Part shown: positions 6,386-36,839 of the stretch, piece by piece
How the letters are laid out: each line of letters opens with the position of its first letter
Position numbering within the stretch: the stretch's first letter is position 1
From: Candidatus Atribacteria bacterium UBA6251
GTDB taxonomy: Bacteria; Atribacterota; Phoenicimicrobiia; Phoenicimicrobiales; Phoenicimicrobiaceae
NCBI GenBank assembly: GCA_002441285.1
Contig: DJVR01000034.1
Coordinates: 3,369 to 67,368, forward strand
Direction: 5' to 3'
Length of the DNA stretch: 64,000 nucleotides
Notes under the pieces: model-generated
Told to the model about the DNA's origin: nothing
Database searches by the model: none
The model's input: only the letters and a program-made list of their open reading frames with translations
Program-made: the position numbers and the translations under genes

Positions 6386-6470
6386 TGGTGCGAAGGGCGG
6401 GACTCGAACCCGCATGGTTTTACCCACTGGATCCTAAGTCCAGCGTGTCTACCAATTCCACCACCCTCGC
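6386..6470 (-). tRNA. tRNA-Leu (anticodon TAG), long variable arm, CCA encoded
   Basis: Reverse complement gives GCGAGGGTGG...CTGGACTTAGGATCCAG...GGTTCGAGTCCCGCCCTTCGCACCA. Anticodon loop CTTAGGA. Confidence 0.85.
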
Positions 6471-6484
6471 TATAATAATTTAAA

Positions 6485-6560
6485 TGGTGGGCCGTACAGG
6501 ATTCGAACCTGTGACACCCTGATTAAAAGTCAGGTGCTCTGCCACCTGAGCTAACGGCCC
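6485..6560 (-). tRNA. tRNA-Lys (anticodon TTT), CCA encoded
   Basis: Reverse complement GGGCCGTTAGCTCAGGTGGCAGAGCACCTGACTTTTAATCAGGGTGTCACAGGTTCGAATCCTGTACGGCCCACCA. Confidence 0.9.
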
Positions 6561-6567
6561 ATATAAG

Positions 6568-6641
6568 CGCGCTCGGAGGGACTTGAACCCCCAACCATCG
6601 GATCCGAAGTCCGCAGCTCTATCCAATTAAGCTACGAGCGC
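6568..6641 (-). tRNA. tRNA-Arg (anticodon TCG), no encoded CCA
   Basis: Reverse complement GCGCTCGTAGCTTAATTGGATAGAGCTGCGGACTTCGGATCCGATGGTTGGGGGTTCAAGTCCCTCCGAGCGCG. Anticodon loop CTTCGGA with U33. Confidence 0.8.
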
Positions 6642-6664
6642 TTAAATAAAAGCTTTACTTAAAG

Positions 6665-6740
6665 GGTGAGCGAGGGGATTTGAACCCCCGACCACTGGAG
6701 CCACAATCCAGTGCTCTAACCAGTCTGAGCTACGCCCACC
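6665..6740 (-). tRNA. tRNA-His (anticodon GTG) with the extra 5' G(-1)
   Basis: Reverse complement GGTGGGCGTAGCTCAGACTGGTTAGAGCACTGGATTGTGGCTCCAGTGGTCGGGGGTTCAAATCCCCTCGCTCACC. Anticodon loop TTGTGGC. G-1 and discriminator C are characteristic of tRNA-His. Confidence 0.85.
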
Positions 6741-6756
6741 ATAATAATATAATAAG

Positions 6757-6830
<74 letters not shown>

Positions 6831-6842
6831 AGGTTTAGCATC

Positions 6843-6918
6843 TGGAGCGGGAAACGGGTTTCGAACCCGCGACACCCAGCTTGGAAGGCTGGTGCTCTGC
6901 CAACTGAGCTATTCCCGC
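6843..6918 (-). tRNA. tRNA-Gly (anticodon TCC), CCA encoded
   Basis: Reverse complement GCGGGAATAGCTCAGTTGGCAGAGCACCAGCCTTCCAAGCTGGGTGTCGCGGGTTCGAAACCCGTTTCCCGCTCCA. Confidence 0.9.
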
Positions 6919-6919
6919 C

Positions 6920-6996
<77 letters not shown>

Positions 6997-16224: not shown

Positions 16225-16599
16225 TTATGCTCGATAAAAAAACTTAAATCTATTTTTATTTTCTATATCAATAGCCTGGACATGTTCTTTTACTACTTCG
16301 GGGGGGCTGAATTTTACCAAACCTATTAAACAAAAAATTAAGATTAATAAGTCTTCAAAAAAACCTAAAAAAGGTAATAAAAAATCAGGTAATAAATCAA
16401 AAGGAGAAATAACATATAAAATTGCAGCGTATACTAATAGCTTTAGATAAAAAGAGACTCTTTTATCTCTTATTAAGCGTAAGGATAATTTAATAAAATT
16501 AGGGATATGGAATAAAATTCGTGCAATATATAGTTTTCTTTTTAAACTATTATAATCATTTTGGCTTTCTTCCGTAGACATATTATTTTCTATCTCCAT
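16225..16599 (-). CDS. DUF1232 (YkvA-like) small membrane protein
   Basis: 124 aa. Sequence (YAAILYVISPFDLLPDFLLPFLGFFEDLL) fits DUF1232. Confidence 0.5.
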   Translation of the reverse strand: MEIENNMSTEESQNDYNSLKRKLYIARILFHIPNFIKLSLRLIRDKRVSFYLKLLVYAAILYVISPFDLLPDFLLPFLGFFEDLLILIFCLIGLVKFSPPEVVKEHVQAIDIENKNRFKFFYRA

Positions 16600-16703
16600 A
16601 AAAAATAAAAATTTTCAAATTATTTATATTTTAGAAGGCATAAAAAAGATTTCAATACCTATTAATTTTAACACAATTAAAAGAATATCGTCAATTAAAC
16701 TAA

Positions 16704-16760
16704 AAAAGGGGACAGTCTACTTTTTACAATTACCTTTAAAAAAGTAGCCTGTCCCCTTTT
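16704..16760 (-). terminator. Intrinsic terminator after the small secreted-protein gene
   Basis: Long inverted repeat AAGGGGACAGTCTACTTTTT / AAAAAGTAGCCTGTCCCCTT, with a U-run on the minus-strand RNA. Confidence 0.7.
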
Positions 16761-16788: not shown

Positions 16789-17190
16789 TTACCAACACCC
16801 ACGATATCTGCAAAAATGAGTTGTTTCTATATAACCGTTACTAATGATATAAACTTCTGTTTCTCCTTTTTCAAAAGTTGTAACCTCTGCTCCATCTGGT
16901 GCATCTGCAAAATAGATCCTGAAGGTGCCATTTACTTTTATATCCGGGCCAAACTGATAAGTGCCATCACCGAAATCGATAATGATTATCTTAGTATCCT
17001 TGGTAAGGATTCCCGGATCAAATTCAATAGTTACGTTATTTAAACTTACAGATCCACCCTCTTCTGCGCTTACCCACTCTTGTACCATATCTTTCTTCTC
17101 GGCAAAAACAAACGCAGTTAGAGCAAAAAGGGCAAATACAACTATGATAGAGAGTATAATATAGTGTTTCAAAGATTTATTATTTTTCAT
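16789..17190 (-). CDS. Small secreted/membrane-anchored protein of unknown function, riboswitch-controlled
   Basis: 133 aa. N-terminal signal/TM (IILSIIVVFALFALTAFVFA), a beta-rich domain, C-terminal CRYRGCW. An AGGAGGTG RBS immediately follows a GEMM-like aptamer. Confidence 0.6.
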   Translation of the reverse strand: MKNNKSLKHYIILSIIVVFALFALTAFVFAEKKDMVQEWVSAEEGGSVSLNNVTIEFDPGILTKDTKIIIIDFGDGTYQFGPDIKVNGTFRIYFADAPDGAEVTTFEKGETEVYIISNGYIETTHFCRYRGCW

Positions 17191-17194
17191 TCTT

Positions 17195-17290
17195 CACCTC
17201 CTTCGGTAATCCAGCCATCATAGCTATTAAATAGCTTTAGACCTGAGACTTTGCGTCCTACCCTTTCGGATAGTTTGCTATTATCGAGAG
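17195..17290 (-). ncRNA. c-di-GMP-I (GEMM) riboswitch candidate in the 5' UTR of the 16789-17190 gene
   Basis: Minus-strand RNA AUAGCAAACUAUCCGAAAGGGUAGGACGCAAAGUCUCAGGUCUAAAGCUAUUUAAUAGCUAUGAUGGCUGGAUUACCGAAGGAGGUG. This matches the Vc2-type consensus GGCAAACC-N-GAAA-N-GGGACGCAAAGCC-N-GGCCUAAA. The aptamer runs into the RBS. Confidence 0.7.
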
Positions 17291-17405
17291 TTATGCAAGT
17301 TTAGAACCTAAATCCATCATACCCCCACTAAAAAATTATATCATAGATAATCTTTATTTACAAAAAATACCTTAAATTTATAATTCCTATTTTTGCGTCA
17401 TTAGA

Positions 17406-20783: not shown

Positions 20784-22175
20784 TTATGGTCCAGTTACAA
20801 TAATTGACTGAAATGCATATCCGATATTTTCTTCTGAATCTTCTACTGTCAGCTGTACAAGATAAGTTCCTGCAGTACTGTAAGTATGAGTAGTTACCGG
20901 AGTAGGTGGTGTCTCATCATGTACCTCTATAGGGCTACCATCATTAAAGTCCCAGGTATAGCTGACTATAGTTGCACCAATTACCGAAGTAGTCGATTCT
21001 GATGCATCAAGTCCAACAGTAAAGGGAGCAGTTCCAGTTGCACTTGAAGGAGTAACCTTGATAACTGCATTTACTCCACTATCCACAGTAATGGTGACAC
21101 TTCCATAACCAACATTTCCTGCAGAATCCGTTATAGTTAGAACAACTATGTAAGTCCCAATATTTGTATAAGTATGAGAAGTAGTAACTCCTGTCCCGGT
21201 CGTTCCATCTCCAAAATCCCAACTATAATTAGCAGTCATAACTCCACATCCAGTTTCAAAAGTACTACCCGAAGCATCGAAATAGACTGTAAACGGAGCA
21301 GATCCTGTTGTACTCGGAGTAACCTGGATGTCCACACTTGTGACTCCTGTCTCTCCTACGGTAATTACTACTGTATCATAACCTTGTTTTCCCCAATAGT
21401 CAGTTACCGTTAATTTAACAATATAGGTACCACAACTACTATAAGTATGGGCTGCCGGCATAACTCCCGTTCCGGATGTTCCGTCTCCAAAATCCCAACT
21501 ATAACTGGCAATCCCGCGATCATCAGTAGAATCACTAGCATCGAAGATTACGGTAAAGGGTGCGGTTCCACTTACTCCAGGTATTACTTTAATCACTGCC
21601 TTTGGTGGTGTAAAGTCAATTCCTGGTTCTATAGCAGGTAAATTAACAGTAACCGATTTATTGATATTGTGACCGGCTCCATCGGTACCAAGTAAGGTTA
21701 TAGTACAAGTAAGTTCGGTTATTAAAGGATTCTTTTTTATATAATCTTTGACTTCTTGAAAATACAAAGGCATATTTTTAATTTCAGTAATTGGACCAGG
21801 GGTACCGGGAGTAGTGGATGGTTCAACATAAAAAGTAGCTCCCACCGTTTTAGTTAATGAACTTATTTTAGTATTTTCTTCATAATATTCGTATTTAAAA
21901 CCTGAACCAATAAATTCTACTTCATTTAAAGAATATACTTCCAAACTAATGGTGCCATCTTCTAAGTTAATTTCTGTATAATTCAATCTTATCTGCGCCT
22001 GGGGGTCAAAGATATTAAGAAGTCCAAAAGAAAGCCAGTTACACCCAACTAATGATATTATAAAACCTAACAATATGGTTATAAATAATATTTTATACAA
22101 ATTCTTTTTATTTTTATATTGCAAAGTCTTGTCCTCCTTTCGAATTATAATTTTGTCATTGCGAGCCTTCTGCAA
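20784..22175 (-). CDS. PKD-repeat surface (lipo)protein
   Basis: 463 aa. Lipobox-like LVGC after a hydrophobic segment. Four tandem PKD domains (YSWDFGDGTSGTG repeated three times, plus YTWDFNDGS). The annotated TTG start lies inside a dispersed repeat, so the true start is uncertain. Confidence 0.75.
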   Translation of the reverse strand: MQKARNDKIIIRKEDKTLQYKNKKNLYKILFITILLGFIISLVGCNWLSFGLLNIFDPQAQIRLNYTEINLEDGTISLEVYSLNEVEFIGSGFKYEYYEENTKISSLTKTVGATFYVEPSTTPGTPGPITEIKNMPLYFQEVKDYIKKNPLITELTCTITLLGTDGAGHNINKSVTVNLPAIEPGIDFTPPKAVIKVIPGVSGTAPFTVIFDASDSTDDRGIASYSWDFGDGTSGTGVMPAAHTYSSCGTYIVKLTVTDYWGKQGYDTVVITVGETGVTSVDIQVTPSTTGSAPFTVYFDASGSTFETGCGVMTANYSWDFGDGTTGTGVTTSHTYTNIGTYIVVLTITDSAGNVGYGSVTITVDSGVNAVIKVTPSSATGTAPFTVGLDASESTTSVIGATIVSYTWDFNDGSPIEVHDETPPTPVTTHTYSTAGTYLVQLTVEDSEENIGYAFQSIIVTGP

Positions 22176-22400
22176 GAAGGCGTGGCAATCTCAATTTTAT
22201 TTTTTCAATTATATGCCAACTTAGATTCCCGCTCTGAATTACCGCTTTCGCGGGAATGACATAATCAAATTAAAATGACATTTAATATTTTTCTTATAGG
22301 GGTCGGATTTATCCGACCCGTTTTAATTGCGGGTTCGATGAATCAAACCCCTACATTTCACCCTCACCCTACCCTCTCCCCTCAAGGGAGAGGAAATAGA
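22150..22400. repeat. Composite of dispersed GTCATT-hairpin repeat modules plus GC-rich hairpins
   Basis: GTCATTGCGAGCCTTCTGCAAGAAGGCGTGGCAATCTCA at 22155-22193. A reverse-orientation GTCATTCCCGCGAAAGCGG module at 22226-22262. Hairpins GGGTCGGATTTATCCGACCC and CCTCTCCCCTCAAGGGAGAGG. Related copies at about 27260 and about 32150. Confidence 0.75.
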
Positions 22401-22416
22401 AACGATGACAAAAATA

Positions 22417-24321
22417 TTAGTAATCTAACTTGTGAGCAGTGATAAGGATAATTATTTCTGTTTTCTTGTTTTTGCTATTAGTAAATTTGAATAACTCACC
22501 AAATATAGGTATATCTCCTAATAACGGTATTTTCGTTGTAGTTTTTATCTGTTCTGAAGTAATTAATCCTCCTATTACTACCGTCTCACCCAATTTAGAT
22601 CGAATTATTACCTCCTCTTCTCGAGAATTAATTACAGGATAACCTATATACTGCTCTGTTCCCAGTGAATTTACTGTTACATAAACATCCATTGTTATGG
22701 GCCCATCAGTACTTAAATAAGGAGTAATATTTAAAGTTAATCCTACTTTTTTATAATCAATAGTTTCCACACCTTCAGCATCTCTCTTTTTTATAGGAAT
22801 TTGTTGACCAGTTTCTATTCTAGCTTCTTTCCCATCCAAAGTAAGAACCTTAGGATTAGATAGAATATTAGTCTTTCCTTCAGTTTGCAAGGCTTTTAGC
22901 GTTGCTTCAATTAAACCACTTCTTTCGAAAGAACCCCCTAAAGTTATTTCACCTATAGTAATTTGACCTTCTAATTTAGCATCACCACTCACCCACTTAA
23001 TTCCTAAGTCTTTTTCCCCATCTAAAGTAATTTCAACGACTTTAGCTTCTATCATTATCTGAGGTACACGCTTATCCAGACCAGCAATCATTGTTTCTAC
23101 ATTATCCAATTGTTCTTCTGTACCTTTTACAATAATTTCACTCTGCCGGCTATCAATATTTATTCTTTCTTCTTCAGGAATAATAATGCTGAGCATATTC
23201 TTTATAGCCTCAATTTCATCATCAAAGATAGCATTATTTATCTTAAAGGTTTTAGTAAATAATTGAGAATCAATCCTGGAGATTATCTCTTCAACCTTTT
23301 TTATATCTTCTTTTGTGCCAGAGATGATTAGATTGTTTAATCTTGGATCGGCTACAATATTTATTTTACTTTTTTCTTCTTCTTTTAGATAATTATCTAA
23401 AACTCTTTTAGCTTCTTCAGCGGTTGTATTTTTTAGTTCAAATATTTGAGTAATGGTGGACTGTCTTTCTTTAATTTTATTTTTAGTGGTAATGTAGACC
23501 GTATTCTCGGAAATTTCCATATAATCCAAATCTTTAATTAATAAAATGGCATTTAAGGCTTCTTTAAAGCTAACTTTTTTGGGGAAATTCAGAGTAATGG
23601 TTCCACTTACCGAGTCATCGGTGATAAGATTAATTTCAGCCCTAGCAAATAAAAGATTTAAAATATCTCGAACTTCGGAATCTTTTTTAAAATTAATTTC
23701 CAAAGGTTCCATCTTATTATCCGCTAAATCAATAATTGAAACCTTAGGGGGTTCTTCTTTTTCCAGCTTGACTGGTTTACTAATTACCGGGGTAACTGTA
23801 AATACTTGAGCTTCAGGAGCAGTAAATTCTTCATAATCATAAATATCAATATACAATAGCTTTTTCTCTTCCGATAATTTTACTTCATACTTTGCCTTTT
23901 GAAACAAATCTACCACAAATCTGGTAATAGGTATCGGTTCAGTTTCAAATTGTCCACATCTTACCTGTTTAACTGCTCCCAAATTTAAAAATAAAATATT
24001 TTTAGATAAATCTTGGATGTTATAAATTGCATTCTTTACATCAATTACAATTCTATCCGGAGAATCGAAATAACTAACTTCATAATCTTGGATTGCTCCA
24101 TTAGCTTTAATGGTAAGATGAGTAAAGTTAGGAACTTTTTTATACCAGATATTAGTAAAAGAAATATTATCTGTCTCAGCGTTAGCTATAGCTAATATAA
24201 AGGAAGTTAATAAAAATAATATTAAAACGAAAATTAAATTTTTTATTCTTCTAATTCTTGTAGTTGTTTCAACTGGTGGAAAAATAATCATATCTTTTTT
24301 ATTCATTAGAAGCTTCCTCAC
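22417..24321 (-). CDS. pilQ: Type IV pilus secretin PilQ (AMIN domain + secretin domain)
   Basis: 634 aa. N-terminal AMIN-like region. C-terminal secretin signature (GETVVIGGLI...IPLLGDIPIFGELFKF). Confidence 0.85.
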   Translation of the reverse strand: MRKLLMNKKDMIIFPPVETTTRIRRIKNLIFVLILFLLTSFILAIANAETDNISFTNIWYKKVPNFTHLTIKANGAIQDYEVSYFDSPDRIVIDVKNAIYNIQDLSKNILFLNLGAVKQVRCGQFETEPIPITRFVVDLFQKAKYEVKLSEEKKLLYIDIYDYEEFTAPEAQVFTVTPVISKPVKLEKEEPPKVSIIDLADNKMEPLEINFKKDSEVRDILNLLFARAEINLITDDSVSGTITLNFPKKVSFKEALNAILLIKDLDYMEISENTVYITTKNKIKERQSTITQIFELKNTTAEEAKRVLDNYLKEEEKSKINIVADPRLNNLIISGTKEDIKKVEEIISRIDSQLFTKTFKINNAIFDDEIEAIKNMLSIIIPEEERINIDSRQSEIIVKGTEEQLDNVETMIAGLDKRVPQIMIEAKVVEITLDGEKDLGIKWVSGDAKLEGQITIGEITLGGSFERSGLIEATLKALQTEGKTNILSNPKVLTLDGKEARIETGQQIPIKKRDAEGVETIDYKKVGLTLNITPYLSTDGPITMDVYVTVNSLGTEQYIGYPVINSREEEVIIRSKLGETVVIGGLITSEQIKTTTKIPLLGDIPIFGELFKFTNSKNKKTEIIILITAHKLDY

Positions 24322-24964
24322 CTCCTATTTTCAGAGAAAATTCATAATCTTCTATTTCCAGTATTACTTCATTTTTTCTTATCTCTTTGACAATATATTT
24401 ATCTAATAATATATCGTATAATTTAGCAATAAAAGTATCACCATCTATTTCTATCATAGCTACGCGATTACTTTCATTACCGACTATACCATTTAATTTA
24501 GTATCGGGAGGTAATTCCGGTTTGTATATAGCAGTTTGTTTCCACCAGGCTTCCTCCTCTTCAGTTGGAGCCTCTTCTTCTTTTTTAGAAGAGAAAACAC
24601 TTACTTTTTGAAAAGGATTGCGATAGCTAGGAGGTTCATAAGGTTCATAAGCAAAAATTTTCTCTTCGTAAGCTTGTTTTCTTTTTTCCATTTCAATATC
24701 GAAAGGAGTTTTTTCTTGAACCACAGGTTCCTCTTTTTGCAAGGGAGAAGAAACAGCAGTAGAGGTAGTAGTATTCGTTTTAGTAGAAAAAGTTGCTACT
24801 TTAGGGGTACTTGCCTTTGGTGGAAAAAACATCGGATACCCTAAATAGGCAATTGCTCCTAATAAGATTACTAATATTAAAAACAACCATAACCACCTTC
24901 GGCTACGAGAACCTTGGTCTCTTTCTGTTTTTTTAAAAATATTTTTGAAAGATATTTTTTTCAT
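24299..24964 (-). CDS. PilP-like pilus assembly lipoprotein (putative)
   Basis: 221 aa. N-terminal TM, Pro/Thr-rich linker, C-terminal beta domain. Position between pilO and pilQ. Confidence 0.4.
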   Translation of the reverse strand: MKKISFKNIFKKTERDQGSRSRRWLWLFLILVILLGAIAYLGYPMFFPPKASTPKVATFSTKTNTTTSTAVSSPLQKEEPVVQEKTPFDIEMEKRKQAYEEKIFAYEPYEPPSYRNPFQKVSVFSSKKEEEAPTEEEEAWWKQTAIYKPELPPDTKLNGIVGNESNRVAMIEIDGDTFIAKLYDILLDKYIVKEIRKNEVILEIEDYEFSLKIGGEEASNE

Positions 24965-24967
24965 TTT

Positions 24968-25522
24968 CTATGGCGTACCTTCTTTTCTTAATAGATAAGT
25001 AAGCATACTTATAGAAATATTTAATTTATCGGGATCTTTACCACCTTTACTAATATTTAGAGATTGAACATCAATAATACGAGGTAGGTTTTCCAGTCGA
25101 TCCAGATAGAAGATTAGATCAAAATAATTAGCAGCAAGATTCATAGAAATAGGCATTTTCCCATAGATCCTTTCTTTCTCCCAGATGATATTTTGAGGAG
25201 TAAAGTTGGTAAAATCTACTTTAAACTCAGTCATAGTATCTTGAATCATTACCAATAAATCAGGAATCTCTTTTTCTTTAGGCAACATTACCTCTAAAAA
25301 AGCTAATTTTTCTTTCAAAGCGGCATATTCTGCTTTTAAGGGACCTAATTGAGCAGCAATCTTTTTACCCTGTTCAATCTTTTGAGCAGTAGTTTGAATA
25401 TCTCGATCTAATTGTTCTATTTTTTGCATCCTAGGCTGATAAATATATAAATAGTTAACTCCCACAATTAAGATAGTTAAAAGTAAGAGTAGAAAGATCA
25501 CTATGCCCTTTCTTAATTTCAT
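24968..25522 (-). CDS. pilO: Type IV pilus assembly protein PilO
   Basis: 184 aa. Single TM plus coiled coil. pilMNOPQ context. Confidence 0.6.
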   Translation of the reverse strand: MKLRKGIVIFLLLLLTILIVGVNYLYIYQPRMQKIEQLDRDIQTTAQKIEQGKKIAAQLGPLKAEYAALKEKLAFLEVMLPKEKEIPDLLVMIQDTMTEFKVDFTNFTPQNIIWEKERIYGKMPISMNLAANYFDLIFYLDRLENLPRIIDVQSLNISKGGKDPDKLNISISMLTYLLRKEGTP

Positions 25523-25552
25523 AAACTAAATATTTCCTTTCTTTTTTAGCCT

Positions 25553-26122
25553 TTATGGTTTTACTTTCTTAGGTATAAATATTCCGGATAATTTAAAATT
25601 AACTATTTCTGTTTCTATATCATCTGCTTCACGTAAATTAGTTTTATGAACATAAGCCAATTCGATATTATCAAAAGTGGAGTTATTCTTTAAAGCCACC
25701 ATATACTTGGCAATTAAATAATTGTTATAGGTATTAGCAGTAAAATTAAAGGTTTGATTGGCGCTTAAACTAATGTTATCTACCCAAACTTCATCCAGTA
25801 TAGAAGCGCTGAATTCACCCAGAATACGGGATAAACGAGATTGATTATCGATTAACCCCTGAATAACCATAATCCGATCTTCGATAACCTTTTTATCTTT
25901 TTCTAAATCTTTTACTTCTTTGATGATCTTTTCAATAGCTGCTAGTTCAGCCTTCATTACCTTTAATTGTTGTTCACGACTATCGATTTGAATCTCTAAG
26001 TAATAATAGAGGTAAATAGAGGCCATTATTAAAAAAGAAAAGAATAAAATGATTATAAATCTACTAAATCTAAATTTCTCCTTCTCTTTATATTCGCTTG
26101 GTAATAAGTTAATATTTGTCAT
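25553..26122 (-). CDS. pilN: Type IV pilus assembly protein PilN
   Basis: 189 aa. N-terminal INLLP motif and single TM. Confidence 0.65.
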   Translation of the reverse strand: MTNINLLPSEYKEKEKFRFSRFIIILFFSFLIMASIYLYYYLEIQIDSREQQLKVMKAELAAIEKIIKEVKDLEKDKKVIEDRIMVIQGLIDNQSRLSRILGEFSASILDEVWVDNISLSANQTFNFTANTYNNYLIAKYMVALKNNSTFDNIELAYVHKTNLREADDIETEIVNFKLSGIFIPKKVKP

Positions 26123-26131
26123 CTTGATGGT

Positions 26132-27238
26132 TTACCTTTCTCTTTTAGCTAAACCTATTACTGTAGCCAGGGTGGATTTAATCTTATTTAGCCTCTTTAA
26201 ATCAAATTCAGCCTCATTAATCCTGATTCCTTTCCAAGGGTCACCTATTTTAGTAGTAATTTCAAATTCATTGGTGAGGAATTCTTCAATACCAGAAATA
26301 TTGGCACTACCTCCGCAAAGAATAATTTTACTATATTTTACTTGCTGATTTTGAGTTTTATAATAATTTAATGATTTTCTTACCTCTTTAGCTAATTGAT
26401 CTAAAATCTTTAACATAATTTTTTCAGCTTCATCGCTCTTTTTTTCGCCTGGAGATTCTTCAGAGGGATTAATTATTTTAGTTTCTCTTTTTAGTTTTTC
26501 TGCTTCACTAAAGGTTAGATTTAATGATTTGGCAATTGCTTTGGTAATATCGTTACCTCCGATAAGGATATCTCGGGCAAATTTCAAGTTACCTTTTTCG
26601 GTCAGGGTAAGGATGGTAGTGCTTGCTCCTATAGATAAAATTGCATCAGTAACTGTTTCTATAGATTGTTTTTCTTTTTCTTCTTGGACCTTTTCTTTTG
26701 GTTCATTTTGACTTTTATTTAAATAAAAGTCAAAAGCTCTGATATTGGCAGCAGAGCTTATATCCACTATTTTAGGAATTATCCGTACCTTTTTTAAGGC
26801 CTCCATATAAGGTTGAATAACTGATTTAGGAACCGCAACCAGTAAAACTCTCATCATCTGATTGCCATCCTTTTCGGTAAATTCCTCAATCTTTTCCGCA
26901 TCAATTACCGCTTCATCAAGATTATAAGGGACATACTTAGGTGCTTCCCATAGCACTCCTGGTAATATTTCTTTCTCTTCCATTAAAGGCAGAATAATTT
27001 CTCGAATAATTAATTTTTGTCCAGTAATAGCAATAATCGCTCGATTATCTCTCATTCTAATCTTACTTAATAAATCAGCTAAGGCCTCAGCAACCGCAAT
27101 GGGATTTATAATTTCACCATTAGCCACCGCACCTTCCGGACTAAAATTAGTTCCGAAACTATCCAGTTCATATCCAGCACCAACTTTGTTCAGTTTTAAT
27201 ACTTTAATCGAACGTGCACCAAAATCGATTGCAAACAT
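26132..27238 (-). CDS. pilM: Type IV pilus assembly protein PilM (actin-like ATPase fold)
   Basis: 368 aa. PilM/FtsA-like sequence (MFAIDFGARSIKVLKL...). Confidence 0.85.
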   Translation of the reverse strand: MFAIDFGARSIKVLKLNKVGAGYELDSFGTNFSPEGAVANGEIINPIAVAEALADLLSKIRMRDNRAIIAITGQKLIIREIILPLMEEKEILPGVLWEAPKYVPYNLDEAVIDAEKIEEFTEKDGNQMMRVLLVAVPKSVIQPYMEALKKVRIIPKIVDISSAANIRAFDFYLNKSQNEPKEKVQEEKEKQSIETVTDAILSIGASTTILTLTEKGNLKFARDILIGGNDITKAIAKSLNLTFSEAEKLKRETKIINPSEESPGEKKSDEAEKIMLKILDQLAKEVRKSLNYYKTQNQQVKYSKIILCGGSANISGIEEFLTNEFEITTKIGDPWKGIRINEAEFDLKRLNKIKSTLATVIGLAKRER

Positions 27239-27259
27239 ATCTACTCTTTATTTCCTTTC

Positions 27260-27375
27260 TGTCATTCCCGCGAAAGCGGGAATCCATCTTCTCCGTCATT
27301 GCGAAGAATCCACCCTTTCTGTCATTGCGAGGGTGGCACTCAAGTAATATTGAGTGCCACCCGTGGCAATCTCAT
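27260..27375. repeat. Three tandem GTCATT-hairpin repeat modules upstream of pilM
   Basis: GTCATTCCCGCGAAAGCGGGAATCCATCTTCTCC, GTCATTGCGAAGAATCCACCCTTTCT, and GTCATTGCGAGGGTGGCACTCAAGTAATATTGAGTGCCACCCGTGGCAATCTCA. Confidence 0.8.
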
Positions 27376-27425
27376 ATTACTATATCACATCATTGTAAAC
27401 TTACCATATGAATTTTTTTTTCTAT

Positions 27426-27654
27426 ACTCGATAATTTTCTTTCTTGTTTTATTCTTTCTCGATACTATCTTATGTTGTTTCTTTTCTGTTTTCTTTCTTG
27501 ACGCGATAATGTTCTACTAAATGCCAAAGCTATCTCTTTAAGCTCGTAATTCTTTCCCACACTATAACTATCCGCTATTATTATACGACAACCTACGATT
27601 CAAGCCCTTATCTTCTCTTGGACTCGATACTCGATACTATATGCTCGATACTAT
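27426..27654. promoter_or_regulatory. Array of CTCGATACT direct repeats in the pilM upstream region
   Basis: (C)TCGATA(C/A)T occurs at least five times (27426, 27459, 27623, 27630, 27644) within about 230 bp, 190-420 bp upstream of the pilM start. Confidence 0.4.
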
Positions 27655-27732
27655 TTTTATGCTGTTTTTATACATATTTTCTCCATAACTTCTAAAAATC
27701 CTTCTTTTTATGAAAAATAATTTAAAAATTAT

Positions 27733-28956
27733 TTAATATACCTCTCTCCAGGATGTTTTTTTAAAGAAACGGTCACCGGTAGTTGTAAATTGATTCATAG
27801 ATGTATCATAATTAATTATTGATTTATTACGAACATATACAGTATCTGCAATCACCGAACCGGTAACTTCACATCCATTTTTTAATTCAATAAAACCTTC
27901 AGAATTACCATCAGGTAAAATTGATTGAACTATTCCTTTAAGAATAGATGATTTAGCGTAAATTTTGATATTTCCCTGTGCTACTAAAGCAAGTGCGGTA
28001 ATTGGGTCATCTGCATTAATATAAGTACTGTCATTATTAATATTAAAAGTTGCACCTTCTTTAATTTCCACATTACCAGTAGCAATAATTGCACCATTGT
28101 TAACATTTATTGTTGAGCCATTTTTAGCTTCTAAACTTCCTTCAATATAATGTATTCCCGTCCAATTTTCTATATCACCATTTCCCAGAATAACATCACT
28201 TGTGTGATAATGAATATTGCCTGATGCGGCTTCATCAGCCAAAGCTCTCACTTTTAATTCATCATAATCAACTGTAGGAATAGTCTCTTTTGGAACCCCC
28301 GTATTACTACCATCACTAGTATCATCTAAGTCATTATTTTTTCCGGAAGAAGTAGCGTTTCCATCATAATTTTCATCAAACTTACCCGAAACTAAGATAT
28401 CATCATTAGAATGCACATCACCAGTAATATCAGGCCCAGGAGTGCCCTGGAAAAGAATTATTTTATCAGCAAGAATGGCATATTTATACATCGCTATTAT
28501 TATGTAATCAATTTCCGCGGTTACTTCTATTTTTCGCTTTCCTGAGGAAAATTTACCTCCTAAAACTACTCCAGTTGAAGTAATTTTAATCTTATCAGTA
28601 TCAATATCCTCAATGCTTACTTGATAATATTCGGTAGCTGTCCCTGGGTCAGGTTCATTAGTAGGACGCCACTCTATTCCCTCTCCACCATTTTCAACGA
28701 TTGTATTTAATTTCCATAGAGCGTCTTCAATGCCTGCATCAGCCAAATAAAAAGCTTTATTAGATTCCCGTTGAAGGGTAGACAACTTCGTATCATTATT
28801 AGTCATAGTAAGCAGGGCTACGGCTAAAGTAACTAATACAAAAACAAAGATTAAAGTTGTCAAAAGAGCCATGCCTTTTTGATTTAACAGAATATTTCTT
28901 ATTTTTTTATCTTTAATCTTCTTTTTTCTTTTTTTCATTTCTATCACCCCTCTCAA
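27733..28956 (-). CDS. PilX-like minor pilin / pilus assembly protein with beta-helix-like repeats
   Basis: 407 aa. PilX_N-type N-terminus (QKGMALLTTLIFVFVLVTLAVALL). Repeat-rich C-terminal region (GNVEIKEGATFNINND). Confidence 0.6.
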   Translation of the reverse strand: MRGVIEMKKRKKKIKDKKIRNILLNQKGMALLTTLIFVFVLVTLAVALLTMTNNDTKLSTLQRESNKAFYLADAGIEDALWKLNTIVENGGEGIEWRPTNEPDPGTATEYYQVSIEDIDTDKIKITSTGVVLGGKFSSGKRKIEVTAEIDYIIIAMYKYAILADKIILFQGTPGPDITGDVHSNDDILVSGKFDENYDGNATSSGKNNDLDDTSDGSNTGVPKETIPTVDYDELKVRALADEAASGNIHYHTSDVILGNGDIENWTGIHYIEGSLEAKNGSTINVNNGAIIATGNVEIKEGATFNINNDSTYINADDPITALALVAQGNIKIYAKSSILKGIVQSILPDGNSEGFIELKNGCEVTGSVIADTVYVRNKSIINYDTSMNQFTTTGDRFFKKTSWREVY

Positions 28957-29072
28957 GTGGATTATTAGTCAATTTATCGATTAACTAATTCATCAATTTC
29001 AGTACTTCATTTAACCATTCCGTAAAACAGGCGTCTCGCCTGTCTATAATTTTAATAGAAACAAAAAATCTA

Positions 29073-29645
29073 CTATAAACCATAATTTCTCAGATTAACA
29101 TCCGTATTTAAAGTTATATCAGGTTTGCCATCATCATCAACATCTACTTTTAAATTTATGTGTATTTTAGATATTTTAGGCAATGTAGAGATATCAGGAG
29201 AATCATATTTTACTCCATTAGAATCATAGTATTCAAAAATATCTTCCTCACTTATTTTAAGTACATTATCAATTAAAGGATTGCTGGTTAAATTTTTTAT
29301 TCTTTGTATGGTAGTACCAAATAAAGCATAGGTAACAGAATAAGCGGAACTTCCACCTAAAGGAGGAATATCAACAGTAACAGAAATTTCTGAACCACTA
29401 GATATATTACTACCCTCTCTTATTTCTCTTACCATTCTATCCATAGCCTGACGTGCATTTCTCTGTGCCTCTAATTGACTCTGGCCTGCTACCCAGGATT
29501 TAGCTCCCCCTGTGAAAAAAGTTACCAATCCTAAAACAATTAATCCTAGAATAGCCACTACAACCATCATTTCGATTAAACTAAAACCTTTTTGTTTATA
29601 CTTACAATGAATTATCTTCATAATATTTCCCTTTTTAAATATCAC
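29073..29645 (-). CDS. Prepilin-type minor pseudopilin (PilV/PilW/GspJ-like)
   Basis: 190 aa. Class III signal KQKG|FSLIEMMVVVAILGLIVLG. Confidence 0.75.
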   Translation of the reverse strand: MIFKKGNIMKIIHCKYKQKGFSLIEMMVVVAILGLIVLGLVTFFTGGAKSWVAGQSQLEAQRNARQAMDRMVREIREGSNISSGSEISVTVDIPPLGGSSAYSVTYALFGTTIQRIKNLTSNPLIDNVLKISEEDIFEYYDSNGVKYDSPDISTLPKISKIHINLKVDVDDDGKPDITLNTDVNLRNYGL

Positions 29646-29671
29646 AAGATATTTTTGTAATACAATCTTAA

Positions 29672-32296
29672 TTATTCTACTACTGTTATTGGTACAGTAT
29701 ATTCATATGCTCCAAAATTAGTATAAAAAGTAACTGATAATGATTTACCTTCCATATTTGTGCTAAAGGTCAATCTGATAGTAGATTCACCAGGTAACAA
29801 ATTTGCATTGATATTATCTTCGATATGGGGGCTAGTAGAATTTCCGGTATCAATGATAGGGTCATAATCGTCTGCATTATATGGACTTTTAATTTCGATT
29901 TTCCTTAGTTTCGAAGGATCATAGTCCCACTCAACCTTCATACTACTTAAATTAAGTGTAGGTCCATTAACTTTAATATTAAAAGTGACAATTTTATTGT
30001 TTAACCAATATTTTAACGAATTATCTACTAAGATTAAGTTTATTATATTTACTGGAATATTTACAGTTGAAGATGGCTGTGTAATTATATCACCTGAAGC
30101 TTCTGCTTCTACTATTACTGTACCTGGATTAATAGTCGATTGTAAAGTGACTTCTGCAATTCCATTTTCTACATATACCTGTTTGAAGGAAGTTCCATCA
30201 GAAAATTTTCCTGACGTCTCTCCTTCTGTAATTGAAAAATCGACTACACCTGAATAATCAGGAACTATAATACCAGGTTCATCCACTATTGTTGCAGTTA
30301 TTATACAAGTATCCCCACCTACAAAGATATATGCAGGATTAGCAACCAAATTAATATGATGTGGTGCTGATTTTTTGTGAAATAACACCTCTATTTCTAT
30401 TGGATTGTCAGGATTTCCTGGTGGTCCATCTGCATTAGGTGGTAAATCACTTGAATAAATCTTAATACGTGCAGTAACTGTAGATGTAACTTCATAAGGA
30501 TATAAAGTTGCAGTAGCCATACCCCCGGTTAATGTTATTTCCTGAGTAGATTCACCAGAGGAAAAAGACCCTATTCCATTCGTGATTTTAAATGTGATGA
30601 AATTACCGTAAACTATATCCCCATCTTCAGATTTCATAATAGCCGTAATATCAGAAGGTATTATTGTATCTTCATCTAATTCAATAATTGATGGGTCAAA
30701 AGTAACATCGATATGGTGAGCTACAAGCGGACTTAAAATATTTATTTTTGTAGATCCTGAAATTAATTCCCCCCCACTGTCCTTTGCGCTAATTGTTATT
30801 TCTTGAGGAAACTCTCCAATTGAGGATGCTTTAAAAATACAGGTTTGAGAGTTTTCACCTTTAAATGTTAAATTAATAGAACCTGTACTACCGTTTAAGG
30901 TACCATAATCATCGGGGAAGTCAGTAATTACAACAGTTTTTGGAATACCAGCCTCACCAAAACTAACCGGTTTATTATTTTCATCTACAATAGTTACAGT
31001 TATAGTAGTTTCCTCATTCGGATAAATAGACTTTTTCTTTGTAGAAACTAAGATAGATTTAGCATCTCCAGTAAAGGTTACTTCAGTATATCCCATATCT
31101 AAATCAGGAGCTGATGCAGTTATCCCTACTACTCCAGGAGTTCCAGTGGACATTAAGTTTACAGTTGTTGGATTAGTAGGGTCAGCAGATACAGAATTAA
31201 TAGTTGAAGTTGATAAAGAACCAATGTCAGGGTTAGAAACGTTCAATGTTATTGTTCCTGAATATGCTATAGGAGTTTTATAATCAGCTTTTACTACAGT
31301 TACATTGATAGTTGAATTTTCACCTACAGGAAGAATTCTATCTTCTTCGGTTGCAGGTTCAAGAATTATTCCTACAGCTCCAGTGGTTACTCTAATATTA
31401 ACTGTATCAGTTACATCCTCGGGTCCTCCTAAATTAGCTGAAGCTTGAATCTTTTCTATGCCATCTATAGATTCACCTGGTTCAAATGCAAAAGAGTAAA
31501 ATGTAATTTTAGCTTTTCCATTAGTTGTATGGACAATTATAGTGTCTGGGTCATCTTTAGTTCTTGATGCATTATTTATATATCCAACTGGGTTATAATC
31601 ATCATTTGGAGTAGGGATAATAAAGGAAAAACTAATATCTCCTTCCCAATCTGTTATAGTATTACCATTATTGTCTTTAATTTCTGCAAAAAGTGCAACC
31701 TCAGAATCAGGTATAATAGTATAATAAGGAGAGGCATAAAGAATAATACCAGCAGCATCAGAAACTTTACTTGTATTTGGCTTATTATATAATATCGTTG
31801 AGGCTTCTTCTGTTTTTATATTTCCTTTTCTATCCATCCAACGAACCTGCGTAATTACTTTTTTCAAAGTTACTACTTCGCCTTTTTTTTCTAAGTCTAA
31901 AACAATAGAGCCTCTATGAAATTTTGTGCCAGGGATAAGAGTAATGGGTTCATCTTTTACTTTATTAAAATCCATATTTTTAAAATCTTCTATCGTTTCC
32001 CGCAAATAGTTAGTAGCAACTGTCCGGTCTCGGGCGTCAGCCATTCCCATAAAGCCGGTGCTATAGGCGTAAAAGATTCCCACAATGGCCAGAGCTAAAA
32101 TAGCTACCGCTACCATTAATTCAACTAAGGAAAAACCTTTGAGATTGCTTCCCCTGCTTTCGCTGGTGCAGGCTTGCTTCGCTTCTCGCAATGACAGATA
32201 AGATGGATTCCCTCTTTCGCGGGAATGACAGAAGGGAAACAGCCCTCGCAATGACAGGGAAAATTTTATTTTTTTTGATAATATTTTATTTAACAT
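29672..32296 (-). CDS. Giant prepilin-type protein with Ig-like/Big repeats (putative pilus tip adhesin)
   Basis: 874-aa ORF. Prepilin cleavage/methylation motif NLKG|FSLVELMVAVAILALAIVGIF at about 32135, followed by about 800 aa of beta-rich repeat domains. The annotated N-terminal 55 codons overlap the 32150-32275 repeat, so the true start is probably near 32190. Confidence 0.7.
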   Translation of the reverse strand: MLNKILSKKIKFSLSLRGLFPFCHSRERGNPSYLSLREAKQACTSESRGSNLKGFSLVELMVAVAILALAIVGIFYAYSTGFMGMADARDRTVATNYLRETIEDFKNMDFNKVKDEPITLIPGTKFHRGSIVLDLEKKGEVVTLKKVITQVRWMDRKGNIKTEEASTILYNKPNTSKVSDAAGIILYASPYYTIIPDSEVALFAEIKDNNGNTITDWEGDISFSFIIPTPNDDYNPVGYINNASRTKDDPDTIIVHTTNGKAKITFYSFAFEPGESIDGIEKIQASANLGGPEDVTDTVNIRVTTGAVGIILEPATEEDRILPVGENSTINVTVVKADYKTPIAYSGTITLNVSNPDIGSLSTSTINSVSADPTNPTTVNLMSTGTPGVVGITASAPDLDMGYTEVTFTGDAKSILVSTKKKSIYPNEETTITVTIVDENNKPVSFGEAGIPKTVVITDFPDDYGTLNGSTGSINLTFKGENSQTCIFKASSIGEFPQEITISAKDSGGELISGSTKINILSPLVAHHIDVTFDPSIIELDEDTIIPSDITAIMKSEDGDIVYGNFITFKITNGIGSFSSGESTQEITLTGGMATATLYPYEVTSTVTARIKIYSSDLPPNADGPPGNPDNPIEIEVLFHKKSAPHHINLVANPAYIFVGGDTCIITATIVDEPGIIVPDYSGVVDFSITEGETSGKFSDGTSFKQVYVENGIAEVTLQSTINPGTVIVEAEASGDIITQPSSTVNIPVNIINLILVDNSLKYWLNNKIVTFNIKVNGPTLNLSSMKVEWDYDPSKLRKIEIKSPYNADDYDPIIDTGNSTSPHIEDNINANLLPGESTIRLTFSTNMEGKSLSVTFYTNFGAYEYTVPITVVE
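32150..32275. repeat. Three GTCATT-hairpin repeat modules (reverse orientation) at the 5' end of the giant pilin gene
   Basis: Reverse complement reads GTCATTGCGAGGGCTGTTTCCCTTCT, GTCATTCCCGCGAAAGAGGGAATCCATCTTATCT, and GTCATTGCGAGAAGCGAAGCAAGC...GAAGCAATCTCA. Confidence 0.8.
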
Positions 32297-32479
32297 ACTA
32301 TCACCTCAACAATTAGTCTGCCGGTCGACCAATCTGCCAGTCTAAATAGTCATTAGTAAATAGTGGATAATCGTTAGTAAAGAAAATACAAAAAATAAAT
32401 TCAAAAAAACGTAAACCATACACCTCGTAGAACAGGCATCATTAAGCCCACAATTTATGCCCGAAAGCTAACGACTAAT

Positions 32480-32965
32480 TTACCAATTCTCCGGAGGGTC
32501 TGGACTTATTCTTACTCGGGCAGTTACCGGTGTCATAATCACATAAAGAATCTTTCCTCTTTTATTTTTCAAAGTAACTGTTCCTCCCATACTAGGGACT
32601 CCATTCGGATAAAAATAGACTTTATTGTTTGTAAAATTAGTCTTAAATAATTCTACTCCTTCTAATTTTATTTCTTTATAAAGTTCACTTTCACTTCCTT
32701 TAAGTATTTTATATTTATTTGAGGAAGTTGGCCAATTAAAAGTTGTATAAAATTCTATTTTGTAATATACACCCTCATAAAATGCCCTCGACTGAGTATT
32801 TTTTAATTCTGAACTTAAAAGTGCTGCTGCTGTGTTTAATTTATTCCATTGTATCAAATAATCTAATCCGTTTATGCCAAGACCAAGCAGTAAGGATATT
32901 ATACCTCCTACGACCATTAATTCGATAAGGGTAAAACCTTGTTTAAGACCAGGGCTACGCTTCAT
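32480..32965 (-). CDS. FimT/GspH-like minor pseudopilin
   Basis: 161 aa. Class III signal LKQG|FTLIELMVVGGIISLLLGL. Confidence 0.75.
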   Translation of the reverse strand: MKRSPGLKQGFTLIELMVVGGIISLLLGLGINGLDYLIQWNKLNTAAALLSSELKNTQSRAFYEGVYYKIEFYTTFNWPTSSNKYKILKGSESELYKEIKLEGVELFKTNFTNNKVYFYPNGVPSMGGTVTLKNKRGKILYVIMTPVTARVRISPDPPENW

Positions 32966-33093
32966 ATACTGGTTATTTATCTTTCTATATTTTAAAGGTT
33001 TTGGTTATGGTTATTGGTTAAAAGCTATAAGTTTGATACCACATACACCTATTTTTTATAGCTATATATTACATTTTTTTATTTTCTTAATCT

Positions 33094-33861
33094 TTATCCG
33101 CCTAAGTACCAGAATAGAATTTTATCACCAATTAAAATTGCAATTAACGAGCCTGCTACTATAAATGGTCCAAAGGGTATTGTCTCTCCCCTGTTTTTCA
33201 TTTTTAAGATAATTAAAACAATTCCGGTTAATGCACCTAACAAATAACCAAAAAATAAGGATAAGGAAGTATATCTCCAGCCCAGGAAAGCTCCAATCAT
33301 AGCTGCCAGTTTAATATCACCTCCACCCATTGCTTCTTTTTTAAAGAGCCATTCTCCTATCAAGGCGATGAATAAAATTGCACCTCCTCCTGTTACTATG
33401 CCCAGAGCTGAATCCCACACTGAGATATGCTTTACCAAAAAACTGATCATCAATCCTATTACTATCCCTGGAAGAGAAATCTCATTCGGGATAATCTCTT
33501 CCTTAAAATCGATAAAGGCAATAATAATTAGTGCTGAAGATAAAGCCATATAGACTAAAGTTTGCACCCTAAAACCATATTTTAAATAAAGAAGTAAATA
33601 GATTATGGCATTTAAAAATTCTACCACAGGATATTGGAGAGAGATCTTATTTTTACAATTACGGCATCTACCTTTCAGTAAGAAGTAACTTAATAAAGGT
33701 ATATTGTCTTTGGTGCTTATCCTGGTATTACAGTACGGACAATGAGAAGCAGGATAAACTATCGATTCTTTTCTGGGTAGACGATATATACATACATTAT
33801 TAAAACTTCCTACCACCAGACCGAGAACGATTAATAGAATAATATTTATAACATAGTACAT
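33094..33861 (-). CDS. pilD: Prepilin peptidase (A24 family) PilD
   Basis: 255 aa. N-terminal zinc-binding CPYC...CRNC tetracysteine. Polytopic membrane domain with catalytic Asp motifs. Confidence 0.85.
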   Translation of the reverse strand: MYYVINIILLIVLGLVVGSFNNVCIYRLPRKESIVYPASHCPYCNTRISTKDNIPLLSYFLLKGRCRNCKNKISLQYPVVEFLNAIIYLLLYLKYGFRVQTLVYMALSSALIIIAFIDFKEEIIPNEISLPGIVIGLMISFLVKHISVWDSALGIVTGGGAILFIALIGEWLFKKEAMGGGDIKLAAMIGAFLGWRYTSLSLFFGYLLGALTGIVLIILKMKNRGETIPFGPFIVAGSLIAILIGDKILFWYLGG

Positions 33862-33876
33862 TTATACTCCTGTTAT

Positions 33877-34263
33877 TTATTTTACCACTATATTTAAATT
33901 TAAAAATTCACCATCAGGACCAATCGCATCAATGGTGAAGGTATCTATACTATTAAACTTTACTACTACATCACCGGGGGTACTGAAACCGTTAGCGGTT
34001 TGTACTCCTCGGGTAATGGGATTCTGAATATTTAAAGATTTTATTAGATCATCTATATTATTCCAGATAATTATAGGATGTTTACTGATTAATTCTGATT
34101 TAATTTCACTTACTACCGAATCTAAATTAGCTTTAATCAGTCTTATTTCATTCTGTTCTACATACCAATCATAGAGTTTGGGAACATAGATTATGGCAGC
34201 CCCAATAATCGCTATCCAGATAATTAATGTTAGAACCACTATGCCTTTTTGGTTATGTAGCAT
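33877..34263 (-). CDS. Small membrane-anchored protein, possibly a degenerate pilin-like protein
   Basis: 128 aa. QKG followed by a hydrophobic helix (IVVLTLIIWIAIIGAAI), but no Glu at +5. Confidence 0.35.
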   Translation of the reverse strand: MLHNQKGIVVLTLIIWIAIIGAAIIYVPKLYDWYVEQNEIRLIKANLDSVVSEIKSELISKHPIIIWNNIDDLIKSLNIQNPITRGVQTANGFSTPGDVVVKFNSIDTFTIDAIGPDGEFLNLNIVVK

Positions 34264-34280
34264 CCCTCTTTACCTCTATC

Positions 34281-36835: not shown

Positions 36836-36839
36836 AAAA

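Follow-up and report, generated by a model that had tools for sequence, protein, structure and literature searches.

Here, we describe a riboswitch and the small gene that follows it in a 64,000-nucleotide (nt) stretch of DNA from Candidatus Atribacteria bacterium UBA6251 (GenBank assembly GCA_002441285.1, contig DJVR01000034.1, positions 3,369 to 67,368; here, the window). On the minus strand lie, in order, a promoter-like site, a 5' leader, an aptamer of the GEMM-I class, an open reading frame (ORF) of 133 amino acids (aa), and a terminator (Table 1). An initial annotation, made from the letters alone, had noted the ORF with CRYRGCW at its end and had described the aptamer as fused to the ribosome-binding site. 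The two do abut, as the conserved ACCGAA tail of the aptamer directly joins the Shine-Dalgarno (SD) sequence GGAGGUG, but the spacer that follows, AAGA, is 4 nt long rather than the 5 given there. The terminator escaped a consensus terminator scan and was recovered by folding; it is not shared with the DUF1232 gene, as had been proposed, for the hairpin precedes that gene, which has a promoter-like site of its own. The transcript would be expected to start near 17328, and a -35 TTTGCA and -10 TATAAT in the same arrangement as in the window are kept across ten genome loci. Upstream, Pfam matches (Guanylate_cyc, AAA_16, and TPR) agree with the cyclase/STAND/TPR gene read there before. In the explanation that we consider probable, this cassette is monocistronic, its SD is masked by P1 (the helix that closes the aptamer) in a translational OFF switch with an A at position 20 of the ligand pocket, and its product is an exported, self-cleaving ZU5 mini-protein with the STAND-TPR protein as its partner.

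Table 1. Features of the riboswitch cassette and of other loci in the window (SD, Shine-Dalgarno; coordinates are window positions)
Feature	Position	Strand	Description and basis
Promoter-like site	17335-17363	minus	-35 TTGTAA, 17-nt spacer, TG-extended -10 TATAAT; consensus scan
5' leader	17291-17328	minus	G-run GGGGG at 17322-17326, paired with CUCUC of the P1 5' strand; minimum-free-energy folds and clade consensus fold
P1 5' strand, CUCUCG (anti-SD)	17285-17290	minus	RNAalifold consensus; 100% paired in 62 distinct sequences
GEMM-I aptamer (c-di-GMP-I clan, CL00126)	17202-17289	minus	P2 with GAAA tetraloop, P3, conserved ACCGAA tail; RF01051
Equivalent of G20 of the Vc2 aptamer, here A	17279	minus	cmscan alignment
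P1 3' strand and SD	17195-17205	minus	CG 17205-17204, AA bulge, GGAG 17201-17198
SD GGAGGUG	17201-17195	minus	Contains the GGAG of P1; start codon AUG 17190-17188
ORF, 133 aa	16789-17190	minus	ORF list; ends HFCRYRGCW
Signal-peptide-like residues 1-30	17101-17190	minus	..AFA↓EKK; cleavage site read by eye
Residues 31-133, ZU5/GAIN-B-like beta-sandwich		minus	AlphaFold2 model, Foldseek, Pfam ZU5 matches of remote relatives
H125-F126-C127, predicted autoproteolysis site HF↓[S/C]	16810-16818	minus	Motif conservation
7-residue tail CRYRGCW, last beta-strand	16792-16812	minus	AlphaFold2 model
Intrinsic terminator	~16698-16760	minus	Long hairpin between A-tract and U-tract; -36.3 kcal/mol, z = -4.15
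DUF1232 gene	16225-16599	minus	Downstream of the 133-aa ORF; own promoter-like site
Upstream partner gene, 1029 aa	17406-20495	minus	Class III cyclase domain, AAA_16 STAND NTPase, TPR; Pfam
GAF and HD-GYP gene	41836-42984	minus	Motif scan
Tandem RF01051 aptamers	37405-37510 and 37599-37693	minus	60 and 77 bits; G20 in both
Type IV pilin ORF	36840-37262	minus	N-terminal methylation motif
Type IV pilus cluster	~20784-37262	minus
PKD-repeat protein	20784-22175	minus	Pilus cluster
Secretin	22417-24321	minus	Pilus cluster
PilO	24968-25522	minus	Pilus cluster
PilM	26132-27238	minus	Pilus cluster
PilX-like	27733-28956	minus	Pilus cluster
Large N_methyl and Ig-like protein	29672-32296	minus	Pilus cluster
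Prepilin-peptidase-like	33094-33861	minus	Pilus cluster; by eye
Paralogous small proteins	37880-38332 and 38391-38816	minus	First matches DUF6982; second likened to it by eye
Paralogous sigma-70-family proteins	38827-39543 and 39595-40290	minus	By eye
6S RNA	56147-56381	minus	97 bits; 63-nt insertion relative to model
Seven tRNA genes, clustered	6389-6996	minus

The identity of the aptamer is virtually certain. In an Rfam scan (cmscan) of the whole window, RF01051 (c-di-GMP-I) matches here over model positions 1 to 87 of 87 (84.0 bits; gathering score, 35; E = 4e-15), the highest scoring of three RF01051 matches; the covariance model thus bears out the earlier call of a third GEMM riboswitch in the window. 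A word-indexed search with the 133-aa protein returned 18 homologues, all from metagenomes or metagenome-assembled genomes (MAGs). Ten homologue loci came from species-representative genomes, all Atribacterota, and a metagenome scan gave 62 further loci. RF01051 lies immediately 5' of the homologue gene at all ten genome loci (73 to 82 bits), and a covariance model made from leader, aptamer, and SD matches each of the 70 Atribacterota-type loci that reach upstream of the start codon, 67 at full length and 3 clipped by a contig end. Across 62 distinct sequences, ten base pairs of the aptamer show two-sided compensatory change, which backs both P2 (with its GNRA tetraloop) and P3; 98.7% of cells are paired, as against 22 to 41% with slid partners, and the observed covariation score was reached by 0 of 500 shuffles. 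Five public gene calls in the family (P0004, P0006, P0007, P0016, and P0028) begin MAGLPKEV.., which is the translated 3' half of the aptamer (AUGGCUGGAUUACCGAAGGAGGUG). These are start-codon miscalls that conceal the riboswitch in annotations, and our analysis corrects such public calls, whose starts fall inside the aptamer.

The initial annotation had proposed a translational expression platform, and fold prediction does find the required pairing of GGAG within P1. RNAalifold on the leaders closes the aptamer with CUC[C/U]CG opposite CG-AA-[G/A]GAG, the GGAG of the SD forming the outer 3' strand, and in the curated structure of RF03167, its sister family in Rfam, P1 follows the same register (cg:cg, aa bulge, outer pair). 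P1 is paired throughout the distinct sequences; its single variable pair is CG in 49, UG in 7, and UA in 6, and never CA. With the SD inside P1, control is very probably translational. A transcription-termination platform was rejected, as there is neither space nor a terminator from the aptamer to the AUG.

The leader offers a competing partner for the 5' strand of P1. In the main clade, a hairpin (GGAGUUUA/UAAACUCC; 96% paired) takes up the same CUCC as P1, and its pair 24-50 (GC in 49, AU in 8, and GU in 4) falls on the same C/U column. This column thus pairs alternately with leader G/A and SD G/A columns and covaries with each. The window's clade is without this hairpin; its 5'-terminal G-run instead pairs with the CUCU of the P1 5' strand in minimum-free-energy folds and in the consensus fold of the clade's 8 distinct leaders. 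Over the family as a whole, this second pairing (columns 4-8 with 47-51) does not covary, and it draws its support from the window's clade only. In the ligand-free state, ViennaRNA puts the SD-free fold, on average, 5.5 kcal/mol below the P1-closed one, with a probability of 0.18 that the SD is paired at all and of 0.02 that it is paired with the P1 strand. In GEMM-I riboswitches, ligand binding stabilizes P1. Without ligand, the G-rich leader element (the 5' GGGGG run in the window's clade, the GGAGUUUA hairpin in the main clade) would therefore hold the P1 5' strand CUC[C/U]C, leaving the SD free and the ORF translated; a cyclic dinucleotide bound at the three-way junction would stabilize P1, pull the SD into the helix, and block initiation. 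Given the overlap of P1 with the SD, the competing leader, and a ligand-stabilized P1, the simplest interpretation is a translational OFF switch in which the leader acts as anti-sequestor, and we regard this direction as likely. In most Atribacterota leaders (for example, L014 1160-1178 and L011 3748-3766), the SD is followed directly by AUGAUUUAA (GGAG-AUG-AUU-UAA); this mini-frame of two codons, which separates the SD from the real AUG, may be due to chance or may have an effect on initiation.

The gene under this control encodes a protein that had been described as secreted and beta-rich, and its AlphaFold2 model (18-sequence alignment; predicted local distance difference test [pLDDT] 85) has that form, with a signal-like N-terminal helix (residues 4 to 29) followed by an all-beta body of ten strands. 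As part of the explanation given above, the product is predicted to be exported via Sec. In a Foldseek search of the PDB, ankyrin ZU5 domains hold ranks 1 to 12 (E = 6e-3 to 5e-2, probability 0.99 to 1.0, template-modeling [TM] score ~0.5), and the CD97 GAIN domain stands at rank 14. With the family profile, HMMER was run exhaustively against 1.84 billion representatives and found few small relatives only, P0034, P0035, and P0037 among them, and all of these share a C-terminal H-F-S-[KRT]-[YF] block. Pfam ZU5 (PF00791) matches 3 of the 13 sequences in alignment A2 (best E = 2.2e-5), the window protein not being one of the three; P0034 is among them, with 21.4 bits (cut-off, 21). This 329-aa relative, with its HFSKF motif, has no riboswitch upstream, so the riboswitch link is specific to the stand-alone forms of ~130 aa. 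The profile search also gave giant LapA/Big-repeat proteins, each matched weakly in as many as 45 stretches; we took their scores as summed similarity between Ig-like repeats and did not count them as relatives.

The most conserved block of the protein is its C-terminal eight residues. HF[S/C]RY occurs in all 69 complete homologues read, and among the 66 tallied, 58 have Ser and 8 have Cys after HF, with no other residue found; in Atribacterota homologues, six to eight residues follow the Phe. In the model, the turn that joins the last two strands (residues 120-123 and 129-132 of the window protein) holds HF[S/C]. The Cys termination stressed in the initial annotation is not a family trait: the first Cys is the residue that is Ser in most homologues, the second commonly gives way to A, S, G, F, or L, and the terminal Trp varies. 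Nor did we find evidence for the adhesin or matrix component suggested there, as fold and conserved motif indicate a ZU5/GAIN-like autoproteolytic module. Motifs of the HF[S/C] type are the autoproteolysis site in PIDD and Nup98 (PMC3210808) and in MAIN domains (bioRxiv 10.64898/2026.05.12.724683). For MAIN domains, which are bacterial and GAIN-like, cleavage at F↓S has been shown experimentally, Edman sequencing placing the cut at H-F-S, and the fragments remain associated (bioRxiv 10.64898/2026.05.12.724683). Bacterial surface proteins and toxins with ZU5-superfamily autopeptidases were described earlier (PMC3482391). On modeled fold and motif, membership of the product in the ZU5/GAIN superfamily is highly likely. 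Self-cleavage at F126↓C127 is predicted with less assurance, although we lean toward it: H-F-[S/C] in the last beta-turn would undergo an N-to-O or N-to-S acyl shift, and the cut would leave a C-terminal strand of 6 to 8 residues held noncovalently.

The same design recurs in a distant clade. A GEMM-I aptamer directly precedes the gene of P0035 (130 aa, 20% identity in alignment A6, C terminus AHFSRYAWW), with a leader that ends ...CUACCGAAGGAGGUGCAAGAUG. A search with P0035, followed by a joint profile, gave 14 further members at 20 to 27% identity to the window family, one of them annotated as an Anaerolineales MAG. At all ten distant-clade loci fetched, an aptamer of the GEMM-I clan ends 10 to 12 nt before the start codon; most fit best with the RF03167 model, and the ligand-contact triad is the canonical G20/A47/C92, with G20 in all ten. 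Here, P1 (GCACC(G)CC-CG with CG-AA-GG(A)GGUGC) engulfs the entire SD, and an upstream GGGCG can pair with CGCCC by eye, giving the same three-part layout in GC-rich form. In L085 and L086, also by eye, the anti-P1 pairing is GUGCG with CGCAC, a compensatory change. The HFSRYAWW tail is invariant in all 15 proteins of the clade. An independent AlphaFold2 model (pLDDT 81) again places the motif in the turn before the last strand, and its top nine Foldseek matches in the PDB are ZU5 domains (E = 3e-4 to 4e-3), followed by CD97 GAIN. By aptamer layout, tail, and fold, the pairing of riboswitch and gene is thus kept, with its design, in two phyla.

The STAND-TPR neighbor is of more consequence than the initial annotation assumed, because a homologous gene precedes the riboswitch in two phyla. 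In Atribacterota, the order is cyclase-STAND-TPR, riboswitch with ZU5-like gene, DUF1232, a RimO-like radical-SAM methylthiotransferase, an Xaa-Pro-peptidase-like M24 peptidase, and a GlyA-like gene (named by eye), and it is retained at almost all loci. In the distant clade, a large STAND-TPR gene lies upstream at eight of ten loci, and the downstream genes differ from those of Atribacterota. Where that upstream gene is complete (L088-L090) or nearly so (L083), a Ser/Thr kinase domain replaces the cyclase; the kinase-STAND-TPR protein aligns with the 1029-aa protein of the window over 782 residues at 23% identity (E = 1e-70). At L088-L090, whose upstream flanks are long, the order is FHA-GGDEF, Ser/Thr kinase-AAA_16-TPR, GEMM-I aptamer, and a ZU5-like gene of 131 aa. 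On the Anaerolineales-type contigs of L088-L091 (for example, GCA_037446815.1 JBBIHX010000031.1), an M20 peptidase and OppC/OppB/OppA-type genes follow the ZU5-like gene on the opposite strand, convergently. A kinase, a phospho-threonine-binding FHA-diguanylate cyclase, and a cyclic di-GMP (c-di-GMP) riboswitch in a row suggest, from domain functions, one pathway, and the L088-L090 arrangement looks like a self-contained route from kinase through FHA-diguanylate cyclase to riboswitch. We infer that the STAND-TPR protein is probably part of the same system as the riboswitch cassette, which would then probably feed the second-messenger pool that the riboswitch reads.

In the window itself, the cyclase domain (residues ~40-220 of the 1029-aa protein) has, by eye, Lys (..NKFLGDG) and Thr (EFTVIGDTVN) at the substrate-specifying positions. 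This pattern is adenylate cyclase-like, so the window's STAND protein probably makes cyclic AMP rather than a dinucleotide. A motif scan of the 64 kb for GGDEF, EAL, and PilZ found only one HD-GYP protein, CD-NTases not being among the motifs scanned for. This GAF-HD-GYP protein is possibly a cyclic-dinucleotide phosphodiesterase, with a GAF domain that may bind cyclic nucleotides, and it could link the adenylate cyclase-like STAND protein to dinucleotide turnover.

The class to which the riboswitch belongs is well known, but this new member is a variant. Immediately 5' of the G21-C22 pair, cmscan aligns an A with a G of the model consensus; of the canonical ligand-contact triad G20/A47/C92, the window aptamer keeps A47 and C92 and has A20. 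This A is present in all 62 distinct Atribacterota copies, and both tandem pilin aptamers of the window have G. In Vc2, G20 contacts the alpha base of the ligand, reading the Hoogsteen edge of one guanine of c-di-GMP (PMC6140456). Natural riboswitches for 3',3'-cGAMP (cyclic GMP-AMP), or GEMM-Ib, carry A at that position (PMC6140456), as the window aptamer does. With A20 in place of G20, c-di-GMP cannot simply be taken as the ligand, a point that the initial annotation overlooked. Vc2 G20A binds c-di-GMP at 53 nM and cGAMP at 120 nM, and the natural A20 aptamer Cbe 1-2 prefers c-di-GMP (30 nM, as against 463 nM for cGAMP) (PMC6140456). As A20 alone gives bispecific binding in these RNAs, it does not by itself define the ligand. 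Judged by sequence, A20 is the signature of cGAMP-sensing or bispecific variants, and the ligand should be c-di-GMP at reduced affinity, 3',3'-cGAMP, or both.

Several observations weigh against the explanation preferred here. P1 is near-invariant, its covariation coming from one column and probably from only two or three evolutionary events; the energy model takes no account of tertiary contacts, of the energy from the ligand, or of kinetics during transcription; in the distant clade, the open and closed states lie at almost equal energy; and even without ligand, the SD could be covered in part by a small UACC:GGUG hairpin. For the window protein, there is no Pfam match even at E = 10, and sequence-profile searches of the PDB with alignments A1 and A2 gave nothing meaningful: where the initial annotation had pointed to profile or structure searches to place this protein, profiles of the PDB gave no match, and the structure search put ankyrin ZU5 on top. 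The Foldseek E-values are modest (3e-4 to 6e-3, TM ~0.5), the matching ankyrin ZU5 domains are not self-cleaving, and a post-cleavage fragment of 6 to 8 residues is without precedent in the literature searched. The adjacency of the STAND-TPR gene in Atribacterota could be plain synteny, as the downstream housekeeping genes are equally conserved. Some of these points also favor particular alternatives. An ON switch, in which the ligand leaves or sets the SD accessible, or control through mRNA stability or Rho-dependent termination, would fit with the weak UACC:GGUG hairpin that can engage the SD in ligand-free folds and with the similar energies in the distant clade, and both polarities are known among GEMM-I members (PMC9262584). 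We consider this improbable: the P1 5' strand is the leader's only extended complement to the SD and belongs to the ligand-stabilized helix, the SD:P1 pairing is conserved without exception and with covariation, the SD is mostly unpaired in ligand-free ensembles, and only 11 nt, with no terminator, separate the aptamer from the AUG. Somewhat less remote, but still unlikely, is a dedicated 3',3'-cGAMP sensor of the GEMM-Ib type, with an Atribacterota cGAMP pathway beside a c-di-GMP pathway read by the G20 pilin aptamers. A20 persists in every distinct copy despite protein divergence to 45% identity, and G20 in the two same-genome pilin aptamers and in the ten distant-clade copies makes A20 a fixed, lineage-specific change; A20 also takes the place of G20 in natural cGAMP riboswitches (PMC6140456). 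However, Vc2 G20A is bispecific and Cbe 1-2 favors c-di-GMP, the homologous cassette of the distant clade has G20 beside an ordinary FHA-GGDEF gene, and the motif scan of the window, which did not look for CD-NTases, shows no GGDEF-type motif.

On the protein side, the stronger challenge is that the product might be an ordinary small beta-sandwich, secreted or membrane tethered, with an adhesin, matrix, or pilus-associated role and no self-cleavage, HFSRY serving folding only. The best-matching ankyrin ZU5 domains are indeed non-cleaving binding modules, the gene lies directly 3' of the type IV pilus cluster, and the conserved Phe and last strand are structural in the ZU5 fold (PMC3210808). 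We give this reading less credence than self-cleavage, as the +1 residue is always a nucleophile (Ser or Cys) in two clades at 20 to 27% identity, H-F-S occupies the MAIN/GAIN cleavage position in the beta-turn before the last strand, and conservation peaks in the C-terminal eight residues. Self-cleavage also admits a far more speculative extension. In RRNPP cassettes (Rap/Phr, PlcR/PapR, NprR/NprX), a cytoplasmic TPR protein is encoded beside a small exported precursor that ends in a short conserved peptide. The ZU5-like cassettes likewise have a TPR gene beside a small exported-protein gene in two phyla, with Opp genes adjoining at L088-L091; however, RRNPP receptors are not STAND NTPases, and RRNPP precursors are unstructured and cut by exported proteases. 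The mini-protein might be a self-processing precursor, or "cage," for a C-terminal peptide of 6 to 7 residues ([S/C]RYRGCW in Atribacterota, SRYAWW in the distant clade), although we find this very doubtful. The exported precursor would cut itself at HF↓S and release the peptide under some condition; the TPR domain of the neighboring STAND protein would sense it directly or after Opp-mediated import; the STAND cyclase, or the kinase acting through FHA-GGDEF, would alter the cyclic-dinucleotide pool; and the riboswitch would read that pool and set translation of the precursor. If true, this would be a closed feedback loop of peptide, second messenger, and riboswitch.

For the preferred explanation, known systems offer partial parallels. 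The ribosome-binding site of Vc2, in the Vibrio cholerae tfoY leader, is reportedly masked at the level of translation (work attributed to Inuzuka, 2018). Vc2 shares the aptamer class and is described as a c-di-GMP OFF switch (bioRxiv 10.1101/617340). Vc2, however, has G20, picomolar affinity, and a masked ribosome-binding site that is remote from the aptamer, whereas the window aptamer has A20 and an SD that is itself the 3' strand of P1, 4 nt from the AUG. The Geobacter GEMM-Ib members Gs1761 and Gm0970, like the window aptamer, have A at the Vc2 G20 equivalent and retain A47 and C92, but they control exoelectrogenesis and pilus genes, and A20 aptamers such as Cbe 1-2 can prefer c-di-GMP. 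The Clostridioides difficile CD1980.2 family also comprises small envelope-associated proteins of obscure biochemistry that are repressed by c-di-GMP via GEMM-I (bioRxiv 10.64898/2026.06.10.731418), there through premature transcription termination.

Among proteins, the MAIN domains described by Brogan and Rudner (2026; for example, Bacillus subtilis YfkN) are likewise secreted ZU5/GAIN beta-sandwiches with H-F-S in a beta-turn. MAIN proteins, however, have a mean mass of 158 kDa, with enzymatic or adhesion domains at the N terminus and, beyond the MAIN domain, a cell-surface anchor at the C terminus, and the window protein departs from this architecture: it is 133 aa long with a sole domain, 6 to 8 residues past the scissile bond, and a possible anchor at the N terminus only. 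No riboswitch upstream of MAIN genes is reported in the literature searched. In PIDD ZU5, the FIIND of NLRP1/CARD8, and Nup98, too, the ZU5-type sandwich has HF↓S (or SF↓S) at its C-terminal end, with a buried Phe, a Ser, Thr, or Cys nucleophile, and fragments that stay bound (PMC3210808). These domains also co-occur with STAND NTPases and repeat sensors. These proteins are eukaryotic, cytosolic, and multidomain, whereas the window protein is bacterial, predicted to be exported, and single domain, with STAND-TPR as a separate gene. In the literature searched, we found no stand-alone ZU5-like protein described as riboswitch gated and as the partner of a STAND-TPR gene. The interest lies in the controlled product, an unannotated family with what is apparently, from its modeled fold, the smallest stand-alone ZU5/GAIN autoproteolytic fold. 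The cassette is a compact, testable system for the role of a bare self-cleaving GAIN/ZU5 module in bacteria, and it bears on how STAND-TPR sensors connect to c-di-GMP signaling. The fixed A20, in turn, bears on cGAMP signaling or tuned c-di-GMP sensing in the largely uncultivated Atribacterota.

The riboswitch cassette lies directly downstream of the type IV pilus cluster listed in Table 1. The tandem aptamers of the window precede the type IV pilin ORF; in the second of them, a U-run comes right after the ACCGA tail, suggesting that the pilin gene has a platform of the terminator type. Just upstream of this riboswitch-controlled gene are a pair of paralogous small proteins and a pair of sigma-70-like proteins. 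Elsewhere, the window encodes a 6S RNA and a cluster of seven tRNA genes.

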